Source: an uncultured Acidobacteriaceae bacterium (lineage in GTDB: Bacteria; Acidobacteriota; Terriglobia; Terriglobales; Acidobacteriaceae). Taken from it: a stretch of 64,000 nt of DNA. The stretch lies in the NCBI GenBank assembly GCA_963831085.1, contig CAWHOT010000002.1:986941-1050940 (forward strand), in the 5' to 3' direction. A program made the position numbers and the translations under genes. Under the pieces are notes generated by a model. It saw nothing but the letters and a program-made list of their open reading frames with translations. It ran no database searches and had not been told where the DNA came from. Below are positions 45,659-62,204 of the stretch, one piece after another; within the stretch, counting starts at the first letter, position 1, and every line of letters begins with the position of its first letter.

Positions 45659-47779
45659 TCAGCTTTGTCTTTTGTCGCCTGAACCGTCGCCAGTTCCCTG
45701 CTCGTCATCGTAATCGGCAGGATCAGTCGGTAACTCGACCTGGTGGGCCCGTTCCAGGGCGCGTAGATACTCCGGGCGAGAATGGCGATAATGGTCGGCT
45801 GGGACTTTGCCGTTGAGCCAGGCTGTATCCATCGGATAGACGAGCGGGTCGAAGATCACCATGTAGAAATGCCAAATAAGGATGGAGAAAGTCGCGAGCA
45901 GCGCTTCGTAATAATGCACGGCCGTGGCCGCATCCGACACCCACTTGGGGAAATGGCGCAACGTGAAATTGTTAAACCACAACAAGAAGCCGGAGACCGT
46001 CATCACCACCGTTCCCCACATGAAGGCCCAGTATTCCATCTTCTCCGCGTAGTTGAATTTCTTGAAGTGCGGTTCGGTTTTTGTGAGCCCGAGATTGTAG
46101 GAGAACACCTGCACCAGATCGGTCGCGTCTTTCAATTCGGGCAACATCGCTTTCAGGAACATGCGATCGCGCTTGTTTCGCGCGAGGTGAATCACGTGGT
46201 AGATCGTGGAAGCGAGGAGCACAACCGCCGCTCCGCGATGCACCGCGCCGCGGAATGCGAAGATGCCTTCGCTGAGCAATAGCGGACGCGCCCAGAATGC
46301 GTCCGGATACTTCAGCGCGAACCCGGTGACCACGAGCGTCGGGAAACTGAGGATCACGCCCCAGTGCGCGATACGGAAGTTGCGATTCATCCGCGTCACT
46401 TGTCCGCCGGTTTCGTGCCGCGGCTGCCGTCGAAGGACCTTGGCCAGATAGTCCAGGAGGTTGTGCAGCATCATGAAGCCGAGCGTCATCGGGATCAGGA
46501 ACCAGTAGGTCCAGCGAATCCACTTCACCACCGGGTGATTGGGGCCCGCGCCGGTCTGCACATGGATGGGGCCGATGATGTATTTGTCATTGACCACGCC
46601 CTGGTGACATTGTCCGCAGGTTTTGGGGAGGTTGGCAGCGTTGACGGTCGAGCGCGGATCGCTGGAACGGAGAATGGAGTGCACCCCATGGCATGAAGCG
46701 CAATTCGCCGCGGTCACTTTCCCTTCGGTGAGGGCCAACCCGTGATAGCTTCCGGCGTAGGATGGCAGGCGATCCATTGGCAGATCATTGCGCAGCGCCA
46801 GACGGGGATCGCCGTGGCAACGCCCGCAGGTCTCCTGGGAGATATTCCTGGCATTTAAGGGTGAGGCCGCGCTCTTTGGATCCATGATCAGGTGCTCGCC
46901 GTGGCAATCGACGCAAACGGGAGCATCCCGAACGCCTTCCTTGACCGCTTCGCCGTGGACGCTCTCGTTGAACTCGCGCGCGATTTCCTTGTGGCATTGC
47001 GCGCAAGTTTCCGGCACCTTCCAGTGATTGACCCGGGATCGCTCGTCGGTGGCGGGATAGATGTCATGAGTGCCATGGCAACTGGAACAGGTGGCCGCAT
47101 CCTTGCCGAGCGCGACCGCGCGGCCGTGAACGCTTTGCTTATAGGAATCGACCGGATGCGCTACCGGAATTTTGTGCCGCGACAAGAAGCCGGCATCGCT
47201 ATGGCATTTTGCACAAGTATCCGCCAGATTCTTACGCGCGATGGTCGAGTCGGCTTCGCTGGAGGCTTTCACCGCGTGGATGGGACCGTGGCAGGACACG
47301 CATTTGGGCGCGTCGGGGTCGCCATTTTTCGCGGCCTGTCCGTGGATGCTGGATTCGAGCGCCTTCAGTTCCTCGCCGTGACATTCCGCGCATTTTGCGG
47401 GCATCAGTTTTTCGGCGGTGGTGAGTTCGTGCACGCTGCCATGGCACGAGGCGCAGGCCGATTCGCCGAGGATGGAGTGGGCGCTGGCGGGGAAAAACTT
47501 GGCTTCGTCCGCATGGCAGGTAGCGCATTTCACTTTGGCGATTTTGGCGGGATGCGGAAATTCTTTGATGGCGGTGTGGCAATCCTTGCAGCCGAGAATG
47601 GCGTGCGCACTGGCGGCATGCTTGGCCGGGTCAATTGAAATGTCTTTCCCGGCGTCGGATTTCATTCCCGCCTGGCCATGGCACGCCAGACATTCCTCAT
47701 CGCCAGCGGGGGATGCCGAGGCCACGGTCGGAGCCAAAACCAAAGTCAGGTAAAGCAAAGCAACCAGAGCTGCACGCAT
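45659..47779 (-). CDS. Fusion of a 13-heme periplasmic c-type cytochrome with a C-terminal membrane b-type cytochrome domain (CbcL-like architecture)
   Basis: Signal peptide; 13 CxxCH motifs, several in doubled-CxxCH modules; a C-terminal ~300 aa with TM helices and conserved His (FdnI/HydC-like cyt b) paralogous to 47846..48736. Confidence 0.85.
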   Translation of the reverse strand: MRAALVALLYLTLVLAPTVASASPAGDEECLACHGQAGMKSDAGKDISIDPAKHAASAHAILGCKDCHTAIKEFPHPAKIAKVKCATCHADEAKFFPASAHSILGESACASCHGSVHELTTAEKLMPAKCAECHGEELKALESSIHGQAAKNGDPDAPKCVSCHGPIHAVKASSEADSTIARKNLADTCAKCHSDAGFLSRHKIPVAHPVDSYKQSVHGRAVALGKDAATCSSCHGTHDIYPATDERSRVNHWKVPETCAQCHKEIAREFNESVHGEAVKEGVRDAPVCVDCHGEHLIMDPKSAASPLNARNISQETCGRCHGDPRLALRNDLPMDRLPSYAGSYHGLALTEGKVTAANCASCHGVHSILRSSDPRSTVNAANLPKTCGQCHQGVVNDKYIIGPIHVQTGAGPNHPVVKWIRWTYWFLIPMTLGFMMLHNLLDYLAKVLRRQPRHETGGQVTRMNRNFRIAHWGVILSFPTLVVTGFALKYPDAFWARPLLLSEGIFAFRGAVHRGAAVVLLASTIYHVIHLARNKRDRMFLKAMLPELKDATDLVQVFSYNLGLTKTEPHFKKFNYAEKMEYWAFMWGTVVMTVSGFLLWFNNFTLRHFPKWVSDAATAVHYYEALLATFSILIWHFYMVIFDPLVYPMDTAWLNGKVPADHYRHSRPEYLRALERAHQVELPTDPADYDDEQGTGDGSGDKRQS

Positions 47780-47845
47780 TTCAACGCCTTTCGGCAGTTC
47801 AAAAGCAAATCATGTGGAGCGACGCTCCACCAACACAAGCCACTT

Positions 47846-48736
47846 CTAGCGGTAGGCGAACAACACCGCATAGATGATCCACAACACAATGCTGAATCCG
47901 ACCGCCAGCGCTGCCCAGGCGAAGGCTCGAATCGTACGGGTGACGATTGGCGGATAAGCCTCCTCCATGTAATCCTCCAGCGTCCCGCTGGCGACCAGCG
48001 CTTCATACTCTCTCGGCTTGTCCCTCTTTAATTCTTCGAGCGGCATGCGCCCAGTGAACACCGTGATGTCCATGGGAAACTTTTCGGGGCGCAAGTGGGT
48101 ATTGAAGAAATGGACGGTAAAGATGAAGCCGGTGGCGAGCAACGCCTCGTCGCTGTGAATGATGGTGGCGACGTTGAGGAACGACCCCGGTATAAACCGG
48201 GTGAAGAACACTGGAAACCAGAGTGTGAGGCCGGTCGAACCGATCACCGCGATCCCCCAAAACACCGCGAAATAGTCGAATTTTTCCCAGTACGTCCAGC
48301 GGCCGTAGGCAGGGCGCTTGCCCAGGCCCACAAACCACTTCAGCGTGGCCACGAACTCAGCCAAATCCTGGCGGTTGGGGATCATGCTGCCCGGACCGAA
48401 CACCAGCGAGCGCCAGGAAATGTGCTCCCTTTTTTTCTGTCGGTACAAGTCCACCAGATGGGTGATGAAGACTCCGAACATGACGACGGCGGCGGTGCGG
48501 TGAATGTAGCCCGCGTTCTCGAATCCGCCGAGCAGATGAGAAAGCACCGCGGCCCATTTCGTGTAGGAGAACTTCAGGGTCAACCCGGTCAGCGCCAGGC
48601 TCATGAAGCTCACGATCATGCAGATGTGCAGAGTCCGCTGCAACCGGGAGAACCGGATGAACTGACGTTCGGGGCGGGCGAACTGCGGACGTTCCGCCGC
48701 GCGTTCCACCAAGTCTGCTGATTCGCCCTTAGGCAT
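47846..48736 (-). CDS. Membrane b-type cytochrome (FdnI/HydC-like), stand-alone
   Basis: The start ATG at 48736 is preceded by AAGGAGAA and lies 4 nt after the upstream stop codon. It aligns by eye with the C-terminus of 45659..47779 (EK..YWA..WG....S.G..LWF ... H..EALLAT..I...HF ... PMD). Confidence 0.8.
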
Positions 48737-50792
48737 CGGTGTTCTCCTTATTCTTGCTCGGGGGAGTTTCAGGCTTGGTGGCGTCTTCGGTTTCCGCGGC
48801 GCGCAACTCCTGGCGCATCTGGAAAGCTCGGGGCAGCCAGAGCAGGGTATGAACGCCACCGACCACGAATGTCACCAGGAGCAGCGTGGTCATGCCCCAG
48901 AAGGTATAGAACAGGAACGGGTACTTGCGCGGGTCGTGGTGGGTGGCGTGCGTCAGGTATCCGGCGAAGCGGCGGGTCGCGCCGGCATGGCATTTTCCGC
49001 AGGTGGCCGCGACGTTGGCCCGGCTGAGGTGAGAGCGTGGATCCGTCACCGCCAGCACGTCGTGAGCGCCATGGCAGTCATAGCACTTTGCCGCTTTCGT
49101 GTACCCCAGCTTCGAGACCTTCCCGTGATAGGTGTCAAAATAGGTCTCGGCAATCTGCTGGTGACAGCGTCCGCACGTAGTCATCACGTTCAGCCGGAAG
49201 CTGTTCTCATCGGTGCGGTGGATGGCATGAGCGGTATGGCAATCGTTGCACACTGGAAGTGACTTGCTGAACCCGCTCACTCGCTTGGCATGGATGCTGT
49301 TCTCGAACTGCTCCTCGATGCCGTGGTGGCACCTGCCGCACGTGGTCGGCACGTTGTTGGCGTTGACACTCGACGCCGGATCGGTCCGGGGAAGGATCTG
49401 GTGAGCGGTGTGGCAACTGGTGCAGGTCGCCGTCACCGTCAGGCCGTTCTTCAGTAGAGTTCCGTGAATGCTCTCCGTATAGTTGGCGATAATTTCGTGC
49501 TGCAGTCCGGTGTAGCGCACGGCAGCCTTCTGGCCCTCGCGGTGACAGCGCGCGCAAAGCACGGGAACATTGGTGGCAAAGGTCGACGATTGCGGATCCT
49601 GTTTGCCCAGGATGCCATGCGCGCCATGGCATTCCTTGCAGGTCGGGGCATTCGGATCGTTCTTGCCGTTCAGCTGTCCGTGGATGCTGGTGGCGTACAG
49701 CTTGCCAATTTCATCGTGGCAAGCGGTGCAGTCGACCCCGTGGATGATGGTCTCGCACGGGCGCACACGGGAGGCGTTGACCTCCGAGTGGCATTGGCTG
49801 CAGGCAACGTTGCGAAGTCTGCCAGGTTCCTCGCTGTGACGCGAATGGTTCACCTCGGTCATGTTGACGTACATGGATTTGCCGTCGCGCGCGCGACGCA
49901 GTTTCTCGTCGGCGTGGCAACGCATGCAGTCGGCATCGGCCATGCCCTGCGCATAGAAGACGTTCCTGATCTTATGGGGCTGATGGCAGTCCGGGCACGC
50001 GGGCAGAACGTTGGCCTGTTTTTCCCAGAGCTCTCCGCGAATTGTCTTCCGGTGGACCGATTCGATTTGCGAGTGGCACTTGGTGCAGGTGGCGGCAATG
50101 TTCCGGCGATTGATCGAGGAAGCGGGATCGGTATGCGGCAAGATCAGGTGCGGGGTGTGGCAGGTGGCGCAGTTCGGGGCCACCGACAGTCCCTTCTTCA
50201 GCAACGCCTCCCCGTGAATGCTCTCAGAGTAGTTCTCCAGAATGTTGTCCTGGGGAATAGTTCGGTTGCGCGAAACCGGAGTTCCTTCGCGATGGCACTG
50301 GCCGCAAACGAAGGGCACTCTCAACGCCGCCACGGCGGACCGGGGGTCCTTCACCGGAACGATGTCGTGGTTCCCGTGACAATTCACGCAGTGGGGCGCC
50401 AGCGCATCGCCGCGGGCAATCGCCTTCCCGTGGAGCGAGCGGGCATGTTGCTCCTGCTCGGTCGCATGGCACGTACCGCACTCGACCCGCGCCGGCGTTT
50501 CGTGGGGAAAGTCCTTCCCTGCCAGATCGGCGTGGCATCCGGTGCACCCGAAGCTGGCATGTACCGAAGTGGCAAATTTCTTTCCATCTACGTATAGCGA
50601 GACCGTTTTGCCGGCTCGCGTTGTGGTCATGGTCTTGTCGCCGTGGCACGCTAGACATTCCTCCCCCGGCTGATCGGCGGCGCATACGGGGCGTTCCAAG
50701 AACACGAGGGAGAAAACGGTGGCGACAAGCGTCGCAACGACGACTCCCAGACCAGCACACCACTTCCTTCGCGCAATTCTTATTTCAGCCAT
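48729..50792 (-). CDS. 19-heme c-type cytochrome with a C-terminal TM anchor
   Basis: N-terminal anchor/signal, 19 CxxCH motifs by hand count, repeated doubled-CxxCH modules (CxxCH..H.[IL]...DP.S.[VI]...N[IV]..TCxxCH), and a C-terminal TM (FWGMTTLLLVTFVVGGVHTLLWL). Confidence 0.85.
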   Translation of the reverse strand: MAEIRIARRKWCAGLGVVVATLVATVFSLVFLERPVCAADQPGEECLACHGDKTMTTTRAGKTVSLYVDGKKFATSVHASFGCTGCHADLAGKDFPHETPARVECGTCHATEQEQHARSLHGKAIARGDALAPHCVNCHGNHDIVPVKDPRSAVAALRVPFVCGQCHREGTPVSRNRTIPQDNILENYSESIHGEALLKKGLSVAPNCATCHTPHLILPHTDPASSINRRNIAATCTKCHSQIESVHRKTIRGELWEKQANVLPACPDCHQPHKIRNVFYAQGMADADCMRCHADEKLRRARDGKSMYVNMTEVNHSRHSEEPGRLRNVACSQCHSEVNASRVRPCETIIHGVDCTACHDEIGKLYATSIHGQLNGKNDPNAPTCKECHGAHGILGKQDPQSSTFATNVPVLCARCHREGQKAAVRYTGLQHEIIANYTESIHGTLLKNGLTVTATCTSCHTAHQILPRTDPASSVNANNVPTTCGRCHHGIEEQFENSIHAKRVSGFSKSLPVCNDCHTAHAIHRTDENSFRLNVMTTCGRCHQQIAETYFDTYHGKVSKLGYTKAAKCYDCHGAHDVLAVTDPRSHLSRANVAATCGKCHAGATRRFAGYLTHATHHDPRKYPFLFYTFWGMTTLLLVTFVVGGVHTLLWLPRAFQMRQELRAAETEDATKPETPPSKNKENTDA

Positions 50793-50811
50793 GTCAAACT
50801 CTCGACCATGC

Positions 50812-52260
50812 TTACTTCATGCCAAGATCCGTAAGTACTTTCGGGTTTGCCTCCTGAACCGCGAGCAGGTTGTGGCACGCACTGCAATCATTGGTGATGG
50901 TCTGGCCATCGGCGCTGGTGTGACTACCGTCATGGCAGCGGAAGCAACCCGGCGAATCGTTGTGTCCAAGATTATTGGGGTGAACACCCCAGGCCACACG
51001 CATGTCGGGGAAGACGTTACGCAGGTAGATATTCGCCACTTCCTGGCCGGCCTGTTCCACCACCGTGCGCCGCGTTTGATAGATCTGCGGGTAATTGGTG
51101 CGATAGAAATTGTTGAGTTCTTCCTTAATGGTGCGCTGCGCCACATCGCGGGCGGAGTAATTCGCTTTGAGAACCTCGACCGCCTTTTTCCGGATGAAGG
51201 GAAGCTCCGGGCTGATGCGCCCGTTCGCCATCTGCTTGTCCACCGCATTTTCCGGCAAGTCGAAGGCATGGGTGGGCCGGTTATGGCAGTCGACGCAATC
51301 CATCACGCGATGCTCTCCCTTGTCCATTTGCTGTTGAGTAGGCTTTGTATCAGTGGAAATGAATTCGGTGGTTTTTCCGTTTTCGTCGGTGTAATAGACG
51401 GCCGGGATCGTCTGCCGCCCGGGGTCAGTCGAAATGTAGCGGATGCGCTCGTTGTCGGCGAGGTGGCGCCCGTGGATGCCGACCGAACCCTGCCAGGCTA
51501 TCCCGCCCACTTTCAGCAGCAACACGTCCGTCTGGGGGGTATTTTTTTCGTCGTCCTTGTAGCTGGCATTCACCAGGAACTTGTCACCGGTAAAGCGCTG
51601 GGGCCAGTGACACTGCTCACAGGTCTCGCGCGCCGGCCGGAGGTACTTTACCGGCGAAGGAATGGGGCGCGAATAGGTGTGGAAGGTTACCGCGAAGACC
51701 TGCCGCAGTCCGGAAAGCTTCGAGCGCACAAACCACCCGGCCCCGGGTCCGATGTGGCAATCGACACATTCCACACGCGAGTGTGGAGAATTCTGATAGG
51801 CCGTGTACTCCGGATCCATCACGGTGTGACAGGTTCTCCCGCAGAAGGTCGTCGAATCCATGTACTGCACGCCGCGGTACGATGCGGTCCCGAAAATGAG
51901 CAGATTGAGCACAGTGGCCGCTGCCACGTACTCCAGAGTGCGGCGCACCACGGGCAGTCCCAGGTCGATGGCAGGGAAAATCGTCGGCAGTTCCCCGCTC
52001 GCGCGCAGAGTTCGCCGCCGGAGCCAGATGCCAAATGGAATCAGCAGCAGGCCGAGTACAAAAATACCCGGGAGAATCAGAAAGACCAGAAGGCCAATAT
52101 AGGGATGCGGCGGCCCCGGCAAGAAGACTTCATAGAACCAGAAGGCGATGGTGGTGAGCGCCGCGCTCGTCGTGACCACGGCACCGATAAGGGTGATAGG
52201 ATTCTGCCCCAGAAAATAGATGGGCTCCGACCACTCTCTGATGCGTTCTTGCAGAGTCAT
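50812..52260 (-). CDS. Inner-membrane multiheme cytochrome with 3 TM helices and a NapC/NirT-like quinol-dehydrogenase region (ImcH-like architecture)
   Basis: Three N-terminal TMs, then TTFCGRTCHTVMDPEYTAYQNSPHSRVECVDCH (NapC/NirT hallmark, but the first site is CxxxCH). Four further CxxCH motifs follow (CEQCH, CVDCH, CFRCH, CSACH). Confidence 0.8.
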   Translation of the reverse strand: MTLQERIREWSEPIYFLGQNPITLIGAVVTTSAALTTIAFWFYEVFLPGPPHPYIGLLVFLILPGIFVLGLLLIPFGIWLRRRTLRASGELPTIFPAIDLGLPVVRRTLEYVAAATVLNLLIFGTASYRGVQYMDSTTFCGRTCHTVMDPEYTAYQNSPHSRVECVDCHIGPGAGWFVRSKLSGLRQVFAVTFHTYSRPIPSPVKYLRPARETCEQCHWPQRFTGDKFLVNASYKDDEKNTPQTDVLLLKVGGIAWQGSVGIHGRHLADNERIRYISTDPGRQTIPAVYYTDENGKTTEFISTDTKPTQQQMDKGEHRVMDCVDCHNRPTHAFDLPENAVDKQMANGRISPELPFIRKKAVEVLKANYSARDVAQRTIKEELNNFYRTNYPQIYQTRRTVVEQAGQEVANIYLRNVFPDMRVAWGVHPNNLGHNDSPGCFRCHDGSHTSADGQTITNDCSACHNLLAVQEANPKVLTDLGMK

Positions 52261-52381
52261 TGGAAGCCGCTGCTCTCCTTATCCTCAATGCTGCGCTGGG
52301 TAGACACACGCCACACTTTGCCGCGGATTCTTAGCCGCCCTCGACCATCTTCCCAGTCTTTATGGCTAGAACCAGCCAGGA

Positions 52382-53753: not shown

Positions 53754-55835
53754 CTATTTCTTCGCCTCCTGTTTGCTGGAGCTTTTCTGCGTCATCAGGA
53801 ATGCGGTCAGAGCGCGGGCGTCTTCGTCGTTCATGTTTCGGTTGGGCTCGATGGTGCCGGGCCGCATGGTCTGCGGTTCCTTGAGCCAGTGGTAAACCCA
53901 CGCGGCATTCAGACGCGAACCTACTTGCGTGAGGGTTGGACCGATGTAGCCTTGGTCCGCCTTGGTATCAACGATGTGGCAGGACTGGCAGGCATACTTG
54001 GAATAGAAAAGCTGTCTTCCCTGCTCGACCTCGGCAGCCGGATAGCCGCTGGCCGGTATCGAGTCGCGATCGAATGCCGGAGTCTGACAAACGGTCATGA
54101 TGTAGTCGGTGAGCTCCTTCGCGTCGTCATCAGAAAGATTGAATTTCGGCATGCGGCGGATCAGCGCCGGACGCAGCGTACCGGGATTCTTCAAGAATGC
54201 CTGCAGCCATTGCCGCTGCACCGAGCTACCTTCCCAGGTCAAATCAGGAGCCATGTCTCCTCCGCGACCGTTAATCGAGTGGCAACTGAAGCATGCGAGG
54301 TCCGCCATGAGTTGTCCGGCTTTGCCTGCGGGCTCGTAATTCGAAGCCGGTTTCGCTGGCACGGTTAATGCCATGGGCAAGTCATGTGCCCGATCTGTGA
54401 GCGCGAGCAGCGCGGTCGTCAGAGCATCGATCTGCGCGGGGGCGAGGGTGAACTGCGGCATCTTCAATGCCGATCCAAACGAGCGCGGTTGCCGGATCTT
54501 GGCGGCAATGTAGTCCGGTATCGCGTGCGTCATTCCGGGCAGGAAAATGATCTGCGTCAGCGGTTTGCTTCCGATGCGGGTCAACTCGGGCGCGAAGTTA
54601 TCCGGTTTCTTGATACCGTTGATCTCGTGGCAGGAAGCGCAGCCGTACTCGGTCACCAGAAGTTTGCCGTGCGCAATCTGCTCCGGCGTGGCGGCGTCGA
54701 GATGCACATTGGCCAGCAGATCGGAATCAGTCTTGTTTCCGAGGAAGGCAGTGAGCAGAGAAAGTTGCGGATCGTTGAAACGATAGTGCGGCATTGCTGT
54801 TCCCGGATCGTAGACACGCGGATTGTGCAACCATGCCCGCAACCATTCCGGCTTCACCTTATTGCCGACCCGGGTGAGTTCCGGACCAACATCACCGCCC
54901 ACAACATTCCCAGCAGCATTCTGCACGGAGTGGCAGGAGGCGCAGAACGACTCGCCGTACAGGCTGGCTCCAGCAGTCGGATCAGGCGGCTTCTGATCTT
55001 TGTTCTTAACCTCGCCACCCGCCGCAACCGGCGCTGTGTCTCCCACGATCGGTGTGCTGTTGGCAATCAGGAAAGCCGAAATGTCGCGCGCGTCGGGATC
55101 GCTCAGTTTGAAATTCGGCATGGTCGCGGTAACGGCGTAGGCTTGAGGATCCTTCAGCCACGCATAAATCCACTCTCGTGTGGTCTTGTCGGCGACGTGC
55201 TCAAGCGACGGCGGATCGTCCGTCGGCTTCAGCGCGCTGCCGTCGGGCAGTTTGATGGTGTGGCAGTGCACGCAACCATATCGCGCCAGCAGATTACGTC
55301 CCAAGTTCAGTTGCGGTGTGCCGGTTAGAGGAGCGCGATGGCACTGCCCGCACGACGATTGGACATACCGCGCCGGCAAGATTGGCTGCTCCCAGGCTAG
55401 CGTGCTGCTGTGGGCTTCCTCGACGGTGGTCGCAGGCCCTTGCCCGCGGTGACACATCGCGCAGCCGAACTGGTCGAGCGTGTGCGGGATTACCGGATGC
55501 CGGCGAAACGGCTGGGTGCTGACATCGGCGAGACTGGCCTCTTTCAATCCGACGTGGCAGGTGGTGCAACGATCTACGACTCCGAGTTGCGGAAGCCATA
55601 TCTGCTGGATTCCGTCGTGTTCGCGAAAGTGGCGCTGCAGGGTTACCGCGTCTCCGCGGCTTGCAATCAGCTTCAGATACTGCTTCTGGTAGTGACGCCA
55701 TTCGCTGAAGTGGTTCTTGGCCGGCGCAATGCCCAGCGAAATCAATAGCAGCAGGCTGACCACGCCAAACGCGCGCACGGGATCGCCGAACAACGTTTGC
55801 CACAGCGAAGATAAAGTGCTCTTTGACGACGGCAA
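53754..55835 (-). CDS. Membrane-anchored octaheme c-type cytochrome of bc operon 2 (N-terminal multiheme part plus class I-like c domains)
   Basis: Eight CxxCH motifs (CTTCH, CAMCH, CGQCH, CVHCH, CASCH, CASCH, CFSCH, CQSCH). The listed TTG start at 55892 overlaps the upstream gene by 56 nt. The in-frame TTG at 55835 has GGAGG 7 nt upstream and lies 1 nt after the upstream stop. Confidence 0.8.
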   Translation of the reverse strand: MPSSKSTLSSLWQTLFGDPVRAFGVVSLLLLISLGIAPAKNHFSEWRHYQKQYLKLIASRGDAVTLQRHFREHDGIQQIWLPQLGVVDRCTTCHVGLKEASLADVSTQPFRRHPVIPHTLDQFGCAMCHRGQGPATTVEEAHSSTLAWEQPILPARYVQSSCGQCHRAPLTGTPQLNLGRNLLARYGCVHCHTIKLPDGSALKPTDDPPSLEHVADKTTREWIYAWLKDPQAYAVTATMPNFKLSDPDARDISAFLIANSTPIVGDTAPVAAGGEVKNKDQKPPDPTAGASLYGESFCASCHSVQNAAGNVVGGDVGPELTRVGNKVKPEWLRAWLHNPRVYDPGTAMPHYRFNDPQLSLLTAFLGNKTDSDLLANVHLDAATPEQIAHGKLLVTEYGCASCHEINGIKKPDNFAPELTRIGSKPLTQIIFLPGMTHAIPDYIAAKIRQPRSFGSALKMPQFTLAPAQIDALTTALLALTDRAHDLPMALTVPAKPASNYEPAGKAGQLMADLACFSCHSINGRGGDMAPDLTWEGSSVQRQWLQAFLKNPGTLRPALIRRMPKFNLSDDDAKELTDYIMTVCQTPAFDRDSIPASGYPAAEVEQGRQLFYSKYACQSCHIVDTKADQGYIGPTLTQVGSRLNAAWVYHWLKEPQTMRPGTIEPNRNMNDEDARALTAFLMTQKSSSKQEAKK

Positions 55836-55836
55836 G

Positions 55837-56553
55837 TTAGCTCCTCCAGGGCAACACCCAGGACCAACCTGGGCCGCGAAAGAAAGTGCCAACCGCCGTG
55901 AGCACGACCAGTTCGAACAGGAACCAGGTCATGATCCAGAACGAGAGTGGTTTGGAGGCCAGATAACCCCGGAAAGCCGAAGGCGATTGCGGAGAACTTT
56001 GCGCCGCCAGCACCATGAACCCGACAACGATCAGGGTCGGCACCAGCGCCACATACACATCAAACCACAATAAGAACACAGAGAGAGCAGCCGCGACTAC
56101 GTAGAAAATAAGCAGGCGACGCTTCCGATCCTTCAGGAACACGCCTTCGGCCTCGACATTGATGTTGAAATAGGGAATCACAATCAGCGCGATCATCACC
56201 AGCGTTGGAACCAGCACACCCGCTACCACCGGCGGAAAGTAGTGCAACATTTCCTGCAATCCGAGGAAGTACCAGGGCGCCTTGGCGGGGTTGGGCGTGT
56301 GAGAGGGATCGGCAATGCCCTCAAGCGGTGCGTTGAACATGAGAGACACGCCCACTAGCGCGATCGTAAGCACCTCAATGGCGACAATGACGCGGAAGAG
56401 GACTTCCGGATACGTCTGCACCTGATCTTCGTCCGTAACCTTGACCTGCGCGGAGGTTCGCCGGGTGACGAAGACAACACGGGTCGGCGACTTACGGGCG
56501 TTAGAGTCCATGCCGGCGATGAAATCTTTCCGATCGGTCTTCTTATCGCTCAT
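55837..56553 (-). CDS. Cytochrome b C-terminal part (subunit IV-like) of split cyt b, bc operon 2
   Basis: The start ATG overlaps the upstream stop (ATGA). [17 protein letters not shown] corresponds to the PEWY region. Several TM helices. Confidence 0.85.
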
Positions 56554-57350
56554 TGGAGCTGCGCCTCCTGCGCGACGGCGGGCGGGGCTTTCGCCGCCGC
56601 CGTTCTTGGCTCGCTGTGGTGGGCGTAGAGGCCGCCATCTTTGCGAATGCGCCAGAAGTGTATTGCCACAAAAAGAATCGCAACCAGGGGCAGAATCATG
56701 CAGTGCAACACGTAAAAGCGCAGTAGAGCATTGGCGTTCACCATATTGCCGCCCAGCATCAGGAAGTGAACCTTGTTGCCCATCACCGGCACGGCGGAAG
56801 CTATATTCGAACCCACCGTGATCGCCCAGAAGGCCAGTTGGTCCCAGGGCAGCAGATAGCCCGTGTAGCTGAGCAGCAGCGTAAACAACAGCAGGATGAC
56901 TCCGATGACCCAATTGAACTCGCGCGGCGCCCGATACGCTCCGCGGTAAAACACCTTGAACATGTGGGCGAACACCAGGAAGACCATGGCATGCGCGGAC
57001 CAGCGGTGCAGGTTGCGCAAGAACAGGCCGGAGGACACCACGAACTGCAGATCCTTAGTGTCGGCGTAGGCCTGCGGCACCGAGGGATGGTAATAGAACA
57101 TCAGGGGAATGCCGGTAACGACCAATATAAGAAATGTCCCGAACGTCAGAGTGCCCAGATACCAGGTCGTGCTGAAGCTGAGCATTCGGGTGCGCACCTT
57201 GGTAGAGAAAAGGTGCAGGAACACGTTTTGCTGCACGGCGAGGGCGCGGCGCAGAGTGCTGGATCCGGTCCCGCTGCGGAATACGGAACGCCAAACGCGC
57301 GTGCCGCGCAACTCCTCGAAATAGGTCGCGATTGTTTTCACCACGCTCAC
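56550..57350 (-). CDS. Cytochrome b6-like N-terminal part of split cyt b, bc operon 2
   Basis: Four-helix pattern with two His pairs (..[11 protein letters not shown].. and ..[18 protein letters not shown]). Overlaps the Rieske gene by 4 nt. Confidence 0.9.
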
Positions 57351-57868
57351 ACCCTCACAAACTGCATGGGACGAATGGTGATGGATCGGTCCACCATCAA
57401 ATCGCCCTCGTCGCTGATCCAGGTCTGCAGCCAGGGCAGCGGCCTAGGCGCAGGACCTTCAATCTTTTCTCCGGGAGTTTTCCCGGGGCTCAGAACATAA
57501 AACTTGCTGCCATGGCAAGGACAAGCAATGATGCCCAACTCAGGCTTCCAAGCGGTCAGGCAGCCGAGGTGGGTACAGACAGCGCTCAGCGAAAAAAAGC
57601 CTTCTTGGGCGTGGATGAGATAGATACCTGAATTCACGTCCAGCGTCACCGAATTTAGGGCATAATTTTCCGGCTTGCCCGCGTTGACAATGGGAGAAGG
57701 CTCGTACAACACGTTTGGCGAGAGAAACTGGTACGAGAATGCGGCCGTACCGGCAGCGGCGATACTCAGCGATCCCAATCCCAGCTTCATGAAAAAGGCG
57801 CGGCGGTTGAAGTCGGTATTTGTTTCCGCTGCACCCTCCGCCGGCGTGTTTTTCTTCTCCTCGGACAT
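57347..57868 (-). CDS. Rieske [2Fe-2S] protein with Tat signal, bc operon 2
   Basis: [13 protein letters not shown] twin-arginine region; CTHLGC and CPCHGS boxes; GAGGT RBS. Confidence 0.9.
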
Positions 57869-57884
57869 TGTTTACCTCGAAAGG

Positions 57885-60023
57885 TTACCTCGGGCCTCCC
57901 GCCGTGACTGGCGATTTGGATCTGAGTGGTCCATCGATGGCTTCCACTGAAATCAATCCGGTGGGCTCGGCGGAAATCAGGTTGTAGGACTCCATGGTGA
58001 TGGTGCCGACGGGACAGCGCGCGGCGCAGAGACCGCAGCGAATACAGCGAGTCTCGTCTTTCAGCATGGCAGAACCGGTCACGATGCCGAGTTCATCGGC
58101 CGCCACTTCATTGAGTTCGACGCCAAACAATTCCTGATTTTCGTGGATTTGCTGCACGGTTTCGGGCTCGAACTGGATGCGATCCAGGGATACGAGCTGC
58201 AGGCAGTTTTCCGGACACACATCCACGCAACCGCCGCAAAGGATGCACATACTCCCGTCTTCGGGGACACCTTCGAAGACCGTGTTTACCCAGCAATGCA
58301 GGCAACGCTGGGCTTCTTCCATGGCGGACTCAGCGTCGTAGCCGACCTCAACTTCGGTCACCCCGGTGCGGCGCTCCACCGGCAGCATTGGTATGGGTGG
58401 GCGAATCAGGTCCAACAACTCCAGCGGCATGCTGTGGCGCTTCAGCACCTCGACTTCGATGATCGGTTCAGGGTGCCTCTCGCCAAGCATGAACTCATCA
58501 ATGCCGGTCGCGGCGTGCCGGCCGTGAGCCACGCTGTCGATGGACGCACCCCCGGACGCACGCCCGGCGAACGGAGTCGGACTGCCCGAGTCACTGCCAA
58601 CGTCAGCTCCGGCAGCAGCTTCACGCGCTCGGTGAACCCGCAGGAACTCATCGATGCCGACGGCAGCGCGCTTGCCGTCCGCCACGCTATCGATGATCAA
58701 ACGCGGGCCGAAAACGCAGTCCCCTCCGCCAAAGATTCCATTGGCCGAAGTCATCAGCGTTTTCGGGTTCACCGCGATCAGCCCACGAGGAGAAAGTTCC
58801 ACGCCGTCTTCGGGTTTGAGGAAGTCCAGCCTCGGCGCCTGGCCGACCGCCATGATGATGGTGTCGCACTCCAGTTGTGTTTCACTGCCCTCGTAGAACG
58901 CTGGATTGAAGCGCTTGTTCTCGTCGAAGACCCATTTCGTCTGCAGCGTTTCCAGCGCAACAACTCTGCCATCTTTGCCAATTATGCGCTTGGGGCCCAG
59001 GCCGGGATGCATAACGATGCCTTCGGTTTCGGCCTCTTCGATCTCCTCCAGCGCCGCCGGCATTTCTTCGCGTTTTTCCAGGCAGACGAGATGCACTTCC
59101 TGCGCGCCCAGGCGCAGGGCAGAGAGCGATACATCCACCATCTCTTTTGTGGCCACGGCACTTACACTCTCCAGCGAAGGCTCCAGGTCTTCTACTCCAG
59201 CAACATGCTGCCGGACGACTTCGCGCGCCGCCGAACGCGCCACGTCCATGGCCACGTTGCCACCACCGATCACAATAACTTTTTTGCCGATGGTGAACTT
59301 GTAGCCGAGATTCACGTTGAGCAAGAAATCGATGCCTTTGTAGACACCATCAAGGTCAACGCCCGGGATCGTGAGATCGCGGCTGCGATGCGCGCCCACG
59401 GCGATCAGCACGGCATCGAAGCCCTGGTAGCGCAGGTCGGAAACCATGAAGTCGCGTCCGGCTGCGTGATTGAGCTTTAGCGTGATGTCGCCGGTCGCGA
59501 GAATTTCCCGTACCTGAGCCTCGACGACGTCGCGAGGCAAGCGGTATTCGGGAATGCCGAGGTAAAGCATTCCTCCGGCGACCGGCGCAGCTTCAAAAAT
59601 GGTGACCGAGTAGCCCATGAGGGCGAGGTCGTGCGCTGCTGAAAGTCCCACCGGGCCGCCGCCGACCACGGCGACTTTGAAGGGGAGTTTGCCCTGACCC
59701 CGTCCGGCATATACATCGACAGGATGCTTGGATTCAGGTCCGTGCCGCTCCGTCAGAAAACGTTTGAGCGCGCGTATGGCGATGGGGCGATCGATATCTC
59801 CGCGGCGACAGGCGGTCTCACAGGGATGAGCACAGACCCGGCCGCAGATGCTTGCCAGCGGATTGGGATCGCGGGCAAACTTGTACGCTTCCTCAAATCG
59901 CCCTTCCGCTATGAGCGCGACGTAACGGCCCGCGTTGGTGTGGGCGGGACAAGCCATCATGCAGGGGAAGTTGGTATTCAACCAATCCCTGTCTACTTTC
60001 TTGTCTTTGAAGCGCTTCAGCAA
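57885..60023 (-). CDS. GltD/NfnB-like FAD- and NAD(P)H-dependent oxidoreductase with N-terminal Fe-S region and a C-terminal 2x[4Fe-4S] ferredoxin domain
   Basis: CPAHTNAGRY..CGRVCAHPCETACRRG, two Rossmann motifs (VAVVGGGPVGLSAA; VIVIGGGNVAMDVA), and C-terminal CILCGGCVDVCP and CIRCGLCAARCP. TTG start. Confidence 0.85.
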   Translation of the reverse strand: MLKRFKDKKVDRDWLNTNFPCMMACPAHTNAGRYVALIAEGRFEEAYKFARDPNPLASICGRVCAHPCETACRRGDIDRPIAIRALKRFLTERHGPESKHPVDVYAGRGQGKLPFKVAVVGGGPVGLSAAHDLALMGYSVTIFEAAPVAGGMLYLGIPEYRLPRDVVEAQVREILATGDITLKLNHAAGRDFMVSDLRYQGFDAVLIAVGAHRSRDLTIPGVDLDGVYKGIDFLLNVNLGYKFTIGKKVIVIGGGNVAMDVARSAAREVVRQHVAGVEDLEPSLESVSAVATKEMVDVSLSALRLGAQEVHLVCLEKREEMPAALEEIEEAETEGIVMHPGLGPKRIIGKDGRVVALETLQTKWVFDENKRFNPAFYEGSETQLECDTIIMAVGQAPRLDFLKPEDGVELSPRGLIAVNPKTLMTSANGIFGGGDCVFGPRLIIDSVADGKRAAVGIDEFLRVHRAREAAAGADVGSDSGSPTPFAGRASGGASIDSVAHGRHAATGIDEFMLGERHPEPIIEVEVLKRHSMPLELLDLIRPPIPMLPVERRTGVTEVEVGYDAESAMEEAQRCLHCWVNTVFEGVPEDGSMCILCGGCVDVCPENCLQLVSLDRIQFEPETVQQIHENQELFGVELNEVAADELGIVTGSAMLKDETRCIRCGLCAARCPVGTITMESYNLISAEPTGLISVEAIDGPLRSKSPVTAGGPR

Positions 60024-60065
60024 AATGGCGATCCCCAGGGCGTTCGTTTAATAGAAAGCATTCTA

Positions 60066-60101
60066 CTAAGAAAGCGGGGAGCGGACGTGGCCGCCCGCTC
60101 C
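60066..60101 (-). terminator. Terminator-like hairpin after the cupredoxin gene
   Basis: The minus strand reads GGAGCGG-GCGGCCACGT-CCGCTCC followed by CCGCTTTCTT. It separates the barrel/cupredoxin pair from the oxidoreductase-bc operon. Confidence 0.45.
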
Positions 60102-60119
60102 TCTTTCCTATTGGTTTCC

Positions 60120-60701
60120 CTATTTGCTGAGACTGAAGTCCGCTTTGGTGTCGCCCGCCACCGCGACCGGCTTGGACTGGTTCTTGGCGCCTTCATGCCA
60201 GGCGGTTACGGTGTAGCCGCCGTCGGGAACGTTCTCGATCTTGTATTCGCCTGACTTATCCGTGGTGGCGAAGTATGGAGTGGGCGACACGATGACATAG
60301 CCTGACATCTCGGGATGGACATTGCACAGCAGCGGCACTGCGCCAGGATTGTCGAACTTGAAGGGACGTTTCTCGCCCTTAGGCCAGGTGCCAAGGTTGT
60401 GGGTGAGCTTTTTGTTGCCGCCGACGGAAGGCCAAAATACGTTGTGGGCGACATTGTCGCTATTGAGGAACTGCACGGTCGTGCCGACCTGCACCGCTAC
60501 GATATGGGGATCAAACATTAAGCCCTTCTGGTCGATCACGGGCTGCTGGGTGGGAGCGGGGAAGGTTTTGCCCGCAGGCGCTTCCACATAAACGACCGAC
60601 ACTCCGGTAACGCCAGAAACTTTGCCGCTGATCGTGCCCGCGCTGGCGGTCAAGCACACCACTGCTACTACGGCCATCACCATCATGAAACTGCGTGTCA
60701 T
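60120..60701 (-). CDS. Exported type-1-copper (cupredoxin) protein with a C-terminal carboxypeptidase-regulatory-like beta-sandwich
   Basis: Signal peptide. Ligand pattern is His in NVAHNVF plus CNVHPEM (C-x2-H-x2-M, as in amicyanin-type sites). C-terminal GEYKIENVPDGGYTVTAWHEG. Confidence 0.7.
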   Translation of the reverse strand: MTRSFMMVMAVVAVVCLTASAGTISGKVSGVTGVSVVYVEAPAGKTFPAPTQQPVIDQKGLMFDPHIVAVQVGTTVQFLNSDNVAHNVFWPSVGGNKKLTHNLGTWPKGEKRPFKFDNPGAVPLLCNVHPEMSGYVIVSPTPYFATTDKSGEYKIENVPDGGYTVTAWHEGAKNQSKPVAVAGDTKADFSLSK

Positions 60702-60764
60702 TTTTTATCTCCTCGTTATTTTCTACTCCTTTGGATTTGTAATTGGCAATGGCTGAGGTACGCG

Positions 60765-62204
60765 TCAGAACAGGAATTTCGCATCCAGATAAATAGTATT
60801 GTTGGCGCTCGCGTTGCGACCCGAGCCATCGTAGTCGGTTGCCGCGCCATTGAAGCGCGTATATCCGGTGTATTGGAAGGCGAGCTGCAGATTCTGCCAC
60901 GGCCAATACGAGACGTTTGCGATATATCCGGCGCTTCTCGGGTCGCCATTGGGGTTGCCGCCGCCCACAGGACACGGCCCATACAGCGCGCAATCGGCCG
61001 TGCCCTGGGTAATGAACCAACCGAATGTGCCCGTATAGCGATTGCCGAAATGGTATTCGGCGTTGGCCATAAAAGTGTTCAGATGGTGCCCGCACACTGA
61101 TGCCGCTGGCGGACTCTGATTGCAGCTGGCTGCCAACTGGGAATTTTCGCGGATATACGTGCCTCGCAGCGAAAGAATGTCCTTCCTGAATAATGTCCGA
61201 TCATACTGAGTGTCGAAGGCCCAATCGGTGTAAGCATCATAGATGTCAGTTGTCCCGCCATTGGGGATCGCGAAAGGGCTGTTCTTCACGTGCATTCCAT
61301 AGCTGCCGATCTCAAACTGTGTCGTCCCGGTCGATTCCTGCCAAGCGACGCGCCAATATGGCGCAACCCCGACGATGTTGTGTGGAAAACCACTTCCCGG
61401 ATTCGGCTGAGGACTATCCACGTGTTCCGAGCGATAAATCGCTGCATCCAGGTACAGATGATTGTCCCACATCGCGAAGCCACCGAATCCTGCGACGTCC
61501 TGCGACAAAGGACCATTAATGATGGGAGCCGCGGCGGGAGTGGGTGCAAAATCGCTGGCGATCCAGGGGAAACCCCATGCCGGCGTACTGTTCCAAAGAT
61601 CCTCTACCGTTGGATTGTTGTTGAGGTCCAAGCCGTAAACCAGTTCCTTGCCGCTCACCTTCGTCTTATTCGCGTAGCGGATATCTGTATTATCGCTGTG
61701 GAAATGGTTGGTTTGTGTGTCGTAAGTCACTTGAAGAAAGCTGCCGACGTTGCTTGTCCATGCGCCAGCCAGGAACAGCGATATATCTTGAGGAAATTCA
61801 AAACTGCCATTCTGGGTGGTCGGCACCGGTGAATTGGTGTTGGTAAATGAAGCCTCAAGCATTACGGAAAGGGGCAGCGAAGCGAGAAGATTAAGCGCTG
61901 CATGCGTTTTGCTTCCCTCCGATGTCACGGTTTTTGTCTGATCCCCTCTGTCAACATAGCCGAGCAGCTTGAACCTTCGTCCGGCAGGGTTGAGTTCCGG
62001 CGGCGCGTAGTGGCAGCCACTGCAAGCCAAGCCCGTTTGCCGCGCATAGCTTGGAACCGCCAACGCGCCGGGCGGATTCAATGCGGCAAGAAACAACAAA
62101 ACTATGATAGGAGCTGTCGCAAGCAAAGAGATCGCCATTTTTTTTATCTGGAATCTCATTATTATCCCCGAAAACAGCAGGGACACCCGACGCAGCGTAT
62201 CCAT
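60765..62204 (-). CDS. Putative outer-membrane beta-barrel protein with an N-terminal CxxCH motif
   Basis: The ATG at 62204 has AAGGAGG 7 nt upstream (alternative ATG at 62159). Hydrophobic signal, YARQTGLACSGCH, then ~420 aa of alternating beta-like segments ending in the aromatic LDAKFLF. Confidence 0.65.
   Translation of the reverse strand: MDTLRRVSLLFSGIIMRFQIKKMAISLLATAPIIVLLFLAALNPPGALAVPSYARQTGLACSGCHYAPPELNPAGRRFKLLGYVDRGDQTKTVTSEGSKTHAALNLLASLPLSVMLEASFTNTNSPVPTTQNGSFEFPQDISLFLAGAWTSNVGSFLQVTYDTQTNHFHSDNTDIRYANKTKVSGKELVYGLDLNNNPTVEDLWNSTPAWGFPWIASDFAPTPAAAPIINGPLSQDVAGFGGFAMWDNHLYLDAAIYRSEHVDSPQPNPGSGFPHNIVGVAPYWRVAWQESTGTTQFEIGSYGMHVKNSPFAIPNGGTTDIYDAYTDWAFDTQYDRTLFRKDILSLRGTYIRENSQLAASCNQSPPAASVCGHHLNTFMANAEYHFGNRYTGTFGWFITQGTADCALYGPCPVGGGNPNGDPRSAGYIANVSYWPWQNLQLAFQYTGYTRFNGAATDYDGSGRNASANNTIYLDAKFLF

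Follow-up and report, generated by a model that had tools for sequence, protein, structure and literature searches.

A Cyc2-cupredoxin-Rieske/cytochrome b gene unit with an optional ImcH/CbcL-like module in Terriglobales

Introduction

Terriglobales, whose quinone is menaquinone, count among the most abundant bacteria of acid soil and peat and are generally regarded as aerobic heterotrophs. A stretch of 64,000 nucleotides (nt) from an uncultured Acidobacteriaceae bacterium (GenBank assembly GCA_963831085.1, contig CAWHOT010000002.1, positions 986,941 to 1,050,940), referred to below as the window, contains 13 successive minus-strand genes, from position 62204 down to 45659, which encode an outer-membrane barrel, a cupredoxin, a Rieske/cytochrome b complex and several multiheme cytochromes. 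Do these genes form one electron-transfer system, and in which direction would electrons pass through it? A first-pass annotation, made from the sequence alone, had treated the run as a single system; its general idea of electron transfer across the cell envelope is reasonable and is kept here.

The cluster is a composite of three evolutionarily separable modules. Module A holds the genes for a Cyc2-like cytochrome-porin and a cupredoxin. Module B consists of a GltD/NfnB-like flavoprotein that binds nicotinamide adenine dinucleotide (phosphate) (NAD(P)), a Rieske protein, a b6-type cytochrome b, a subunit IV, an octaheme cytochrome c and an immunoglobulin-like (Ig)-heme cytochrome c. Module C holds a monoheme cytochrome c, an ImcH-like cytochrome, a 19-heme cytochrome c, an FdnI-like cytochrome b and a CbcL-like fusion. 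Modules A and B together are a conserved 8-gene unit of Terriglobales. All of the parts come from known families; for the joined Cyc2-cupredoxin-NAD(P) flavoprotein-Rieske/b6-octaheme unit, no description was found in the open-access literature.

Sequence analysis and genome sampling

Genes were delimited from a six-frame listing of open reading frames (ORFs) and their translations, domain calls were taken from Pfam and NCBIfam scans of the window proteins, and homologue lengths served together with ribosome-binding sites to refine the starts. When one genome of each GTDB species was scanned, at least 561 stretches proved to encode a relative of the Cyc2-like protein. The synteny sample is the best 80 of these, found with a 10-sequence alignment and all close Terriglobales relatives; they are Terriglobales metagenome-assembled genomes (MAGs) from the peat and soil projects SPRUCE, Stordalen 'palsa', Microflora Danica 'MFD' and SbA1, and the closest Cyc2-like relative among them is 86 % identical. 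Synteny was read from tblastn searches with the 13 window proteins against these 80 species loci (cited as L001 and so on), and arrangements were counted on those 69 loci in which 9 kb or more of sequence follow the Cyc2-like gene downstream. Over 6,300 homologues of the barrel protein are in the protein collection; those with a named source are MAG-derived 'hypothetical proteins', and their taxon, where given, is Terriglobales or Candidatus Sulfotelmatobacter.

Conservation and modularity of the cluster

The order Cyc2, cupredoxin, flavoprotein, Rieske, b6, subunit IV, octaheme, Ig-heme was present in 59 of the 69 loci and is kept down to approximately 66 % identity of the Cyc2-like protein. 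Four loci have the order without a flavoprotein match: in L017, L024 and L041 the Rieske gene adjoins the cupredoxin gene, and L077 has an unscored gap of 2.1 kb at this point. The flavoprotein is present in 59 loci and absent in three. The Cyc2-cupredoxin pair stands alone in three further loci (L023, L054, L067), and the last three have some other arrangement. The unit ends at the Ig-heme gene in most of L008 to L087 and in L001 to L003, where an opposite-strand polysaccharide gene comes next.

In 11 of the 80 loci the ImcH-like gene of module C is found no more than 10 kb away, and three configurations occur: co-directional and downstream as in the window (L010, L012, L045, L064; 84-92 % identical), divergent and upstream as a close orthologue (L066, L068), or divergent and upstream as a paralogue of 42-43 % identity, with the gene order monoheme c, CbcL-like, ImcH-like (L039, L065, L069, L070, L084). 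The divergent-paralogue configuration is likewise seen in L006 and L007. No module C was found within 10 kb in 50 of the 59 loci with the full 8-gene unit. The 11 of 80 loci compare with about 0.4 % expected at a random position in a 5-Mb genome, a rough estimate in which related species are not independent, and because module C is near modules A and B far more often than chance, a functional link between them is indicated. Module C is clearly an optional, separately transcribed accessory. The single fixed system of the first-pass annotation does not survive the 80-genome comparison, which shows an 8-gene unit, lone Cyc2-cupredoxin pairs, and module C nearby in 11 loci only.

Some genomes hold more than one Cyc2-like gene. 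L067 and L084 come from the same MAG (MFD09286.bin.1.47), in which one copy forms a lone Cyc2-cupredoxin pair and the other heads a full unit. The matched Cyc2-like gene of L051 and of L079 has a complete cupredoxin-to-Ig-heme unit upstream of it, which points to tandem or additional Cyc2 copies.

The Cyc2-like cytochrome-porin

The barrel protein, which the first-pass annotation had described as a CxxCH-bearing barrel, gave no Pfam or NCBIfam match. Members of the Cyc2 family have a signal peptide, one CXXCH with AXPXFAR[Q/K][T/Y] before it and PXL four residues after it, and a 16-strand porin resembling OprO/OprP (Keffer 2021, PMC8406198). The heme region of the window protein reads ALA| and then VPSYARQTGLACSGCHYAPPELNPAGRRFKL, and its heme site is AVPSYARQT-GLA-CSGCH-YAP-PEL, with the single CxxCH at residue 61 of 479. 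The consensus is present with Tyr replacing Phe, and the spacing from the motif to the CXXCH is 3 residues here, compared with '5 upstream' in Keffer 2021. The length of 479 amino acids (aa) exceeds the family minimum of 365 aa, and an AAGGAGG ribosome-binding site precedes the ATG at 62204.

Exactly one CxxCH is present in each of 234 full-length homologues (234/234), which have the motif A-x-A-[VLI]-P-S-[FY]-A-R-Q-T-G-x-x-C-x-x-C-H-x-x-x-P-[EQ]-L. At its [FY] position the Terriglobales clade typically has Tyr (114 of 120 close homologues), and 93 of 114 distant representatives have Phe. An AlphaFold2 model has 16 strands, with a predicted local distance difference test score (pLDDT) of 85.4 and a predicted template modelling score (pTM) of 0.82, and Foldseek matched it to 16-strand porins, the top query TM-score of 0.47 being that of OprO (4rjw), with general porins found too. 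The IMG name 'iron:rusticyanin reductase', the enzyme name of Cyc2, is given to one protein in a cluster made at 90 % identity, the representative of which is 75 % identical to the window protein. By its motif, single heme and modelled 16-strand barrel, together with the IMG name, the protein is assigned to the Cyc2 family, whose members serve iron-oxidising bacteria as iron oxidases, and this opens an electron direction opposite to that of the first-pass annotation. A conduit of the Mtr/Pio type was rejected, the barrel having 16 strands rather than 26 and a single heme of its own.

Homologues on plasmids were found by tblastn at 30-36 % identity over about 90 % of the length in Ralstonia megaplasmids (H3-H11), in Burkholderiaceae (Caballeronia, L092, and Paraburkholderia), on pACRY03 of Acidiphilium cryptum JF-5 (L091), an Fe(III)-reducing acidophile, and on a plasmid of Acidithiobacillus ferrooxidans (H12). 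Ralstonia and Burkholderia are named in the data set of Keffer 2021 (PMC8406198). The plasmid-borne genes of acidophiles and of plant and soil Burkholderiales adjoin a gene for a c-type cytochrome or for an iron-sulfur protein of high potential (HiPIP). The annotated start of the Caballeronia gene removes the heme motif.

The cupredoxin and the hairpin behind its gene

The copper site of the cupredoxin is composed of the His in AHNVF and of Cys-Asn-Val-His-Pro-Glu-Met (C-x2-H-x2-M), and the amicyanin and plastocyanin models match weakly. The gene is directly downstream of the Cyc2-like gene in 73 of the 77 species loci with room for it. In other lineages (L088, L089, L091, L092) a class-I cytochrome c or a HiPIP gene flanks the Cyc2-like gene, and the rule seems to be Cyc2 with one soluble one-electron carrier, the cupredoxin being the Terriglobales version. 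To our knowledge, the sole other Cyc2-cupredoxin pairing is Cyc2-rusticyanin of A. ferrooxidans.

The 60 nt past the cupredoxin stop have a median folding energy of -23.3 kcal/mol, with z < -2 in 42 of 77 relatives whose sequences differ, compared with medians of -6.5 to -12.6 kcal/mol and z < -2 in 2-4 loci for the 60 nt past the Cyc2-like, Ig-heme and flavoprotein genes. The hairpin may act in termination, in attenuation or in stabilising the mRNA, setting the ratio of Cyc2 and cupredoxin to the complex, and since it is conserved, the Cyc2-cupredoxin pair is probably expressed at a level unlike that of module B.

The putative NAD(P)-linked Rieske/cytochrome b complex

The best PDB matches of the Rieske protein, ahead of all b6f and bc1 Rieske proteins, were 9rk4 (Kuste4569, E 1.6e-19) and 9rk3 (Kustd1480, E 6.3e-15). 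Each is the Rieske subunit of one of the two Kuenenia complexes in which an NAD(P) oxidoreductase, a b6-type cytochrome b, a subunit IV and a hexa- or octaheme cytochrome c are also present (PMC12954380). The Ser/Phe pair behind Rieske box II is the same as in Kustd1480, which has a midpoint potential (Em) of +335 mV, and the flavoprotein and Kuste4570 both match the same NfnABC structure. As judged from the sequences, the subunit make-up of module B matches that of the two anammox complexes.

The cytochrome b matched b6 (1vf5) with an E-value of 1.3e-44, and its His pairs are 13 and 14 residues apart, the pair of helix D being the latter. The heme-cn Cys35 of b6 aligns with Tyr64. Each of the 74 homologues examined has this Tyr64 and also His46, which lies in an N-terminal extension. 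In the AlphaFold3 models of the anammox complexes, a cytochrome b His carries an additional heme at the interface (PMC12954380); His46 could be its counterpart and is put forward as a candidate only. Subunit IV has KAPWYF in place of PEWY and starts at ATG 56553 with a GGAGG site. The octaheme cytochrome c has an N-terminal transmembrane (TM) anchor, four c3/c7-type sites and then four class-I c domains, and from TTG 55835 its 693 aa equal the length of the L001 homologue. The best named matches for three subunits were Geobacter models of NCBIfam, all sub-threshold: ExtP at 255.6 bits (cut-off 290), ExtQ at 56 (150) and ExtS at 86.9 (100).

Compared with its homologues, the window flavoprotein carries a 51-residue insertion (712 versus 651-661 aa) at residues ~465-515 (~58479-58631, minus strand). 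It has the look of a local duplication, IDSVADGKRAAVGIDEF ... IDSVAHGRHAATGIDEF, with a linker rich in Gly, Ser and Ala in between.

The ImcH-like and CbcL-like proteins of module C

The first-pass annotation had recognised ImcH-like and CbcL-like architectures, and these hold: the one protein has three TM helices, a CX3CH and five CX2CH motifs, and the other has 13 hemes and an FdnI-type b domain. In the ImcH-like protein the hydropathy peaks are at residues 17-40, 55-73 and 108-126, and CGRTCH at 140-145 stands right behind the last; PF03264 matches over 113-197 (E 1e-11), the NrfH model scores 57 bits, and the C-terminus is c7-like. ImcH homologues have three TM helices, a membrane-adjacent atypical CX3CH and 5-9 CX2CH, have been noted in Acidobacteria and are so far known only from Fe(III) reducers (Zhong and Shi, PMC6295460). 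In the published survey the homologues share 31 % identity or more with Geobacter ImcH (GSU3259).

The CbcL-like fusion has a signal peptide, PF01292 at 54.8 bits (cut-off 30.1) over 464-647 and TIGR01583 at 66.9 bits; hydropathy gives five TM segments for a domain of 5-6, three of them with His. The 19-heme protein, which has a C-terminal TM helix, is 31 % identical to the heme part of the fusion, and the FdnI-like cytochrome b (PF01292 at 25.5 bits, sub-threshold) is 33 % identical to its C-terminal domain, so the two are read as a split paralogue of the fusion. The monoheme cytochrome c gene, which has the 323-nt gap upstream of it, travels with the ImcH-like gene in relatives. A nitrite or sulfite reductase operon was rejected, as the Pfam and NCBIfam scans show no catalytic NrfA, Hao, Dsr or molybdoenzyme subunit.

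Proposed electron path and its alternatives

With a little less than even confidence, modules A and B are read as an Acidithiobacillus-like chain that would link dissolved extracellular iron to the quinone and NAD(P) pools, with outward flow favoured and module C as an accessory. Because the order of modules A and B is tight and widely conserved, a shared path through the cupredoxin and the Ig-heme and octaheme cytochromes is the simplest reading. The complex would oxidise quinol and divide its electrons, one to a periplasmic or extracellular sink of high potential, the other by way of the b hemes and Fe-S clusters to NAD(P)+. The first electron would pass from the Rieske protein to the octaheme cytochrome c, then to the Ig-heme cytochrome c and/or the cupredoxin, and through the Cyc2 heme to dissolved iron in the porin. 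Under O2 limitation the sink would be soluble Fe(III), or another soluble high-potential oxidant entering the 16-strand pore at acid pH, and with O2 and a terminal oxidase the same wire might draw Fe(II) electrons into the cupredoxin pool. Module C would add quinol:periplasm oxidoreductases that are sometimes recruited beside modules A and B.

The division of electrons follows the scheme proposed for anammox, in which a high-potential periplasmic acceptor pulls one quinol electron and the other is pushed to NAD(P)+ (PMC12954380). Outward flow to Fe(III) fits three observations: micro-aerobic Fe(III) reduction, by a mechanism yet to be established, occurs in Acidobacterium capsulatum and Acidicapsa species (PMC8790237), ImcH homologues are so far confined to Fe(III) reducers, and a Cyc2-like gene is carried on the plasmid of Acidiphilium cryptum JF-5. 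A more specific form, in which the 8-gene unit is a trans-envelope bifurcating assembly that sends quinol electrons both to dissolved Fe(III) or another soluble high-potential oxidant, by way of the octaheme cytochrome c, the cupredoxin and Cyc2, and uphill to NAD(P)H, is considered improbable. If true, a bifurcating respiratory complex would here for the first time be coupled to an extracellular acceptor; the assembly would account for the micro-aerobic Fe(III) reduction seen in acidophilic Acidobacteria, and hundreds of abundant species of soil and peat would possess it.

Several points weigh against an outward iron chain. The cluster contains no terminal oxidase or iron-specific gene, and all 80 of the related genomes are MAGs. 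The characterised Cyc2 proteins are Fe(II) oxidases and not reductases, and the function of divergent Cyc2 (cluster 3) is described as uncertain (Keffer 2021, PMC8406198). The heme-cn cysteine that is part of the anammox models is absent from the cytochrome b, three loci (L017, L024, L041) carry module B without the flavoprotein, and NAD(P)+ reduction by the anammox complexes is itself a mere proposal (PMC12954380). The hairpin and the lone Cyc2-cupredoxin pairs (L004, L023, L054, L067) may mean that modules A and B are expressed or used independently.

The last of these points is also a ground for regarding the cluster as ordinary respiration beside an unrelated neighbour, with module B as an alternative complex III that would supply a terminal oxidase under O2 by reducing cupredoxin or cytochrome c, and the Cyc2-cupredoxin pair, adjacent for historical reasons, serving Fe/Cu homeostasis or detoxification. 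The lone pairs and the conserved hairpin between the pair and module B agree with such a division, as do the expression of caa3 and bd oxidases by peat Acidobacteriota and the second, more conventional Rieske/cytochrome b/9-heme cluster of the window (23027-25831), which makes paralogues with separate roles plausible. However, it is difficult to account for the Cyc2-cupredoxin-module B order, kept in 59 of 69 loci while the identity of the Cyc2-like protein falls to about 66 %, unless the two are functionally coupled, and the cupredoxin is an obvious common carrier, which leaves this explanation unlikely. Coupling of all 13 genes, as the first-pass annotation proposed, into one co-regulated extracellular-electron-transfer respiration in which three kinds of quinol oxidase (Rieske/b, ImcH-like, CbcL-like) share one periplasmic pool and one outer-membrane exit, is at the other extreme. 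The genes of the window are co-directional with short junctions, L010, L012, L045 and L064 have the same arrangement, a Crp/Fnr-type regulator and a PAS sensor kinase adjoin the cluster, and module C occurs near modules A and B in three configurations, far above chance. This proposal is nevertheless doubtful, as 50 of the 59 full-unit loci have no module C within 10 kb, the gene row is interrupted by the hairpin behind the cupredoxin gene and by the 323-nt gap and unit change behind the Ig-heme gene, no Mtr- or Omc-type conduit is present, and a one-heme 16-strand porin would serve only solutes entering its pore and not minerals or electrodes, an argument taken from Keffer 2021 (PMC8406198).

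A serious rival, although an unlikely one, keeps the coupling of modules A and B and turns the flow inward as Fe(II) oxidation. Electrons would pass from Cyc2 to the cupredoxin and from there partly to an oxidase encoded elsewhere, with the rest going uphill through the octaheme cytochrome c and a reversed Rieske/b complex to quinone and NAD(P)+; the rus and petI (cycA1-sdrA1-petABC) pathways of A. ferrooxidans would here have a compact counterpart. Every tested Cyc2 is an Fe(II) oxidase (PMC8406198), the enzyme name is iron:rusticyanin reductase, the rus and pet operons have parallels in the cupredoxin partner and in the Rieske/b complex accompanied by an NAD(P)-binding protein, and FeGenie-based surveys already count Acidobacteriota MAGs as putative Cyc2 iron oxidisers. 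On the other hand, cyc2 of known iron oxidisers clusters with oxidase or cytochrome c genes and not with bc complexes, and the heterotrophic Terriglobales have no need of reverse electron transport for NAD(P)H. In a reversed complex, electrons of NAD(P)H and high-potential electrons of Fe(II) would also have to be confurcated onto menaquinone; judged from quoted potentials, this is thermodynamically marginal or unfavourable, and the forward, outward direction is favoured for this reason.

Comparison with known systems

The first-pass annotation knew of no described system with this composition. The 8-gene combination was indeed not found described in the open-access literature, although three close precedents exist, namely the anammox NAD(P)-linked Rieske/b complexes, the Cyc2-rusticyanin-cytochrome c-bc1 chain of Acidithiobacillus and the ext cluster of Geobacter. 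No description of anammox-type NAD(P)-linked Rieske/b complexes in Acidobacteria was found in the open-access literature, and acidobacterial homologues of Leptospirillum Cyt572 have been noted. A 2026 preprint describes other porin-multiheme clusters in peat Terriglobales and leaves Cyc2, Rieske, cupredoxin, ImcH and CbcL unmentioned.

The Cyc2/Cyt572 proteins of A. ferrooxidans, Leptospirillum and Mariprofundus PV-1 (PMC8406198) share with the window protein a signal peptide, a lone N-terminal CxxCH, the motifs, a length of about 450 aa, a 16-strand OprO/OprP-like barrel and a neighbouring gene for a soluble one-electron carrier. The window differs in the Tyr for Phe, the heterotrophic acidobacterial host, the plastocyanin/amicyanin-like cupredoxin with an extra beta-sandwich, and the joining of the gene into a unit with a Rieske/b complex. 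The anammox complexes (Kuste4569-4574, Kustd1480-1485; PMC12954380) likewise have a Rieske protein, a b6-type cytochrome b with a separate subunit IV, an octaheme cytochrome c in place of cytochrome f/c1 and a cytoplasmic NfnB/GltD-type NAD(P) oxidoreductase with Fe-S clusters and flavin adenine dinucleotide (FAD) in the same cluster, and the invariant His of the N-terminal extension is a candidate further likeness. Unlike them, module B has no partner resembling octaheme hydroxylamine oxidoreductase (HAO), has Tyr for the heme-cn Cys and the flavoprotein gene before the Rieske gene, is tied to an outer-membrane Cyc2 and a cupredoxin, belongs to a host without an anammoxosome, and lacks the flavoprotein in three relatives.

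Cyc2, a cupredoxin, c-type cytochromes, a Rieske/b complex and an NAD(P)-binding protein are also the components, in this order from the outer to the inner membrane, of the iron chain of A. ferrooxidans (rus cyc2-cyc1-cox-rus and petI cycA1-sdrA1-petABC), which has been proposed to work in two ways, inward in Fe(II) oxidation and outward in anaerobic Fe(III) respiration with Cyc2 as terminal reductase (PMC8790237). That chain is split over two operons, includes an aa3 oxidase and a bc1-type complex with monoheme c1, as against the b6-type here, has in SdrA a short-chain dehydrogenase rather than a GltD/NfnB-like Fe-S flavoprotein, and belongs to an autotrophic extreme acidophile. The extHIJKLMNOPQS cluster of Geobacter sulfurreducens (PMC5877670) similarly combines a porin gene with multihemes and a Rieske protein (ExtO), a b6-type b (ExtP), a small membrane subunit (ExtQ) and a lipoprotein cytochrome (ExtS), whereas its porin ExtI is heme-less, it has no cupredoxin or NAD(P) flavoprotein, and its rhodanese and selenoprotein cytochrome are absent here.

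The proteins of module C are likened to Geobacter ImcH (GSU3259) and CbcL (GSU0274) by architecture (PMC6295460). The ImcH-like protein has about three N-terminal TM helices, a CX3CH, five CX2CH and a NapC/NirT-like core, the hemes of Geobacter ImcH being 6+1, and the CbcL-like protein an N-terminal multiheme domain with a HydC/FdnI b cytochrome, CbcL having 9 hemes and the fusion here 13. In the CbcL/MtrH/MtoC family, 3-23 CX2CH and a HydC/FdnI-like b domain with about six TM helices are found (PMC6295460). The second, split CbcL-like unit (19-heme and b subunit) and the absence of a Geobacter-type outer-membrane conduit nearby distinguish the window.

A Cyc2-type cytochrome-porin joined to a respiratory complex would give Terriglobales a direct role in iron redox cycling and would add a one-heme route beside the porin-multiheme systems of peat Acidobacteriota, and the unit is a candidate mechanism for the Fe(III) reduction of cultured acidophilic Acidobacteria. 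As genetics is impossible in anammox bacteria and NAD(P)H-forming bifurcation is a proposal there (PMC12954380), a homologous soil complex could open the way to experiments, if a cultured carrier exists.

Locus layout and neighbouring genes

The coordinates, heme-motif counts and junctions are given in Table 1. As in the first-pass annotation, the run is co-directional on the minus strand, and the ORF listing gives 13 genes with 48 CxxCH, to which the ImcH-like protein adds one CX3CH (residue 140). The other approximately 50 ORFs of the window have just 11 CxxCH altogether, 9 of them in one protein, so the enrichment of the cluster is not due to chance. The gene-by-gene anatomy given earlier is backed throughout by Pfam or NCBIfam where it called a domain, and the junctions, described as mostly small or overlapping, are so with the refined starts save for two clear breaks, at the post-cupredoxin hairpin and in the 323 nt beyond the Ig-heme gene. 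Five starts were refined, namely octaheme c (TTG 55835), subunit IV (ATG 56553), Ig-heme (ATG 53751), monoheme c (ATG 52693) and the second cytochrome b (ATG 48736).

Table 1 Features of the cluster and its surroundings. Junctions are in nt from each gene to the next one downstream; negative values are overlaps
Feature	Coordinates	Strand	CxxCH	Junction	Details
Cyc2-family fused monoheme cytochrome-porin (assigned)	60765..62204	-	1	63	479 aa, signal peptide, heme motif, 16-strand barrel (model), C-terminal Phe
Periplasmic type-1 cupredoxin with C-terminal CarboxypepD_reg-like beta-sandwich	60120..60701	-	0	96	PF00127, PF13620
GC-rich hairpin right behind cupredoxin stop	60078..60101	-			10 pairs, 8 G-C
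Cytoplasmic GltD/NfnB-like NAD(P)-binding FAD Fe-S protein	57885..60023	-	0	16	712 aa; Fer4_20, Pyr_redox_2, C-terminal 2x[4Fe-4S]
Rieske [2Fe-2S] protein	57347..57868	-	0	-4	PF00355; twin-arginine translocation (Tat) motif RRAFF; CTHLGC and CPCHGSKF boxes
b6-type four-helix cytochrome b	56550..57350	-	0	-4	PF00033, 153 bits
Subunit-IV-like membrane protein	55837..56553	-	0	1	238 aa; PF00032; four predicted TM helices
Membrane-anchored octaheme cytochrome c	53754..55835	-	8	2	PF00034 x5, PF13442, Cytochrome_C7
Exported Big_1 (Ig-like) and class-I monoheme cytochrome c fusion	53017..53751	-	1	323	PF02369, PF13442
Small soluble class-I monoheme cytochrome c (c6/c551-like), opens module C	52382..52693	-	1	121	PF13442, PF00034
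ImcH-like inner-membrane cytochrome	50812..52260	-	5	19	482 aa; PF03264, Cytochrome_C7
19-heme cytochrome c, heme half of split CbcL-like unit	48729..50792	-	19	-8	Paired_CXXCH_1 62 bits
FdnI/HydC-like b-type cytochrome, membrane half of split CbcL-like unit	47846..48736	-	0	66	TIGR01583 43 bits
CbcL-like fusion, 13 hemes and FdnI/HydC-type b domain	45659..47779	-	13		706 aa; PF01292, Paired_CXXCH_1
Terminator-like hairpin behind final gene	45420..45444	-			11 pairs, 8 G-C, T-rich tail
Major facilitator superfamily (MFS) sugar transporter	62359..63987	-			Long insertion between six-helix halves
Crp/Fnr-family regulator	44433..45230	+			cNMP-binding (cyclic nucleotide), HTH_Crp_2
PAS/PAS hybrid histidine kinase	42226..44238	+			Receiver domain
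Second Rieske/cytochrome b cluster	23027..25831	-			Rieske 153 aa, fused 7-TM cytochrome b 361 aa, 9-heme cytochrome c 428 aa
cNMP-binding protein	25897..26361	-			
Sensor histidine kinase	26908..28779	+			CxxCH at residues 115 and 152
Acido-Lenti-1 small RNA (sRNA)	5275..5320	-			Rfam RF01687, 41.7 bits

The doubled-CxxCH module that the first-pass annotation saw in several proteins was upheld in part: Paired_CXXCH_1 is above its cut-off in the CbcL-like, 19-heme and 9-heme (23 kb) proteins, and the ImcH-like protein falls below it (16.1 versus 20.6 bits). The strict regular expression given for the module had no match, and a looser one had four sites in the 19-heme protein, one in the CbcL-like protein and none besides. 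A scan for sigma-70 promoters gave 5 sites versus 6.1 expected, and FNR/CRP boxes (TTGAT-N4-ATCAA, at most 2 mismatches) gave 21 matches versus 19.8 expected, none convincingly upstream of the units; with no enrichment, Fnr control of the cluster from box matches was dropped.

The MFS sugar transporter gene, directly upstream of the cluster and 154 nt from the Cyc2-like gene, is probably outside the unit. The hybrid histidine kinase and the Crp/Fnr-family regulator are both convergent to the end of the cluster. In the second, more conventional Rieske cluster, the 9-heme cytochrome c has a C-terminal TM helix and Paired_CXXCH_1; the cNMP-binding protein gene is just upstream of this cluster, and the sensor histidine kinase gene faces it. 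The two CxxCH of the kinase are in a periplasmic loop between two TM helices, and it may be a heme-c redox sensor. No transfer RNA genes were found in the window. Its sole Rfam hit, above the gathering score, is the Acido-Lenti-1 sRNA, which fits a Terriglobales origin.

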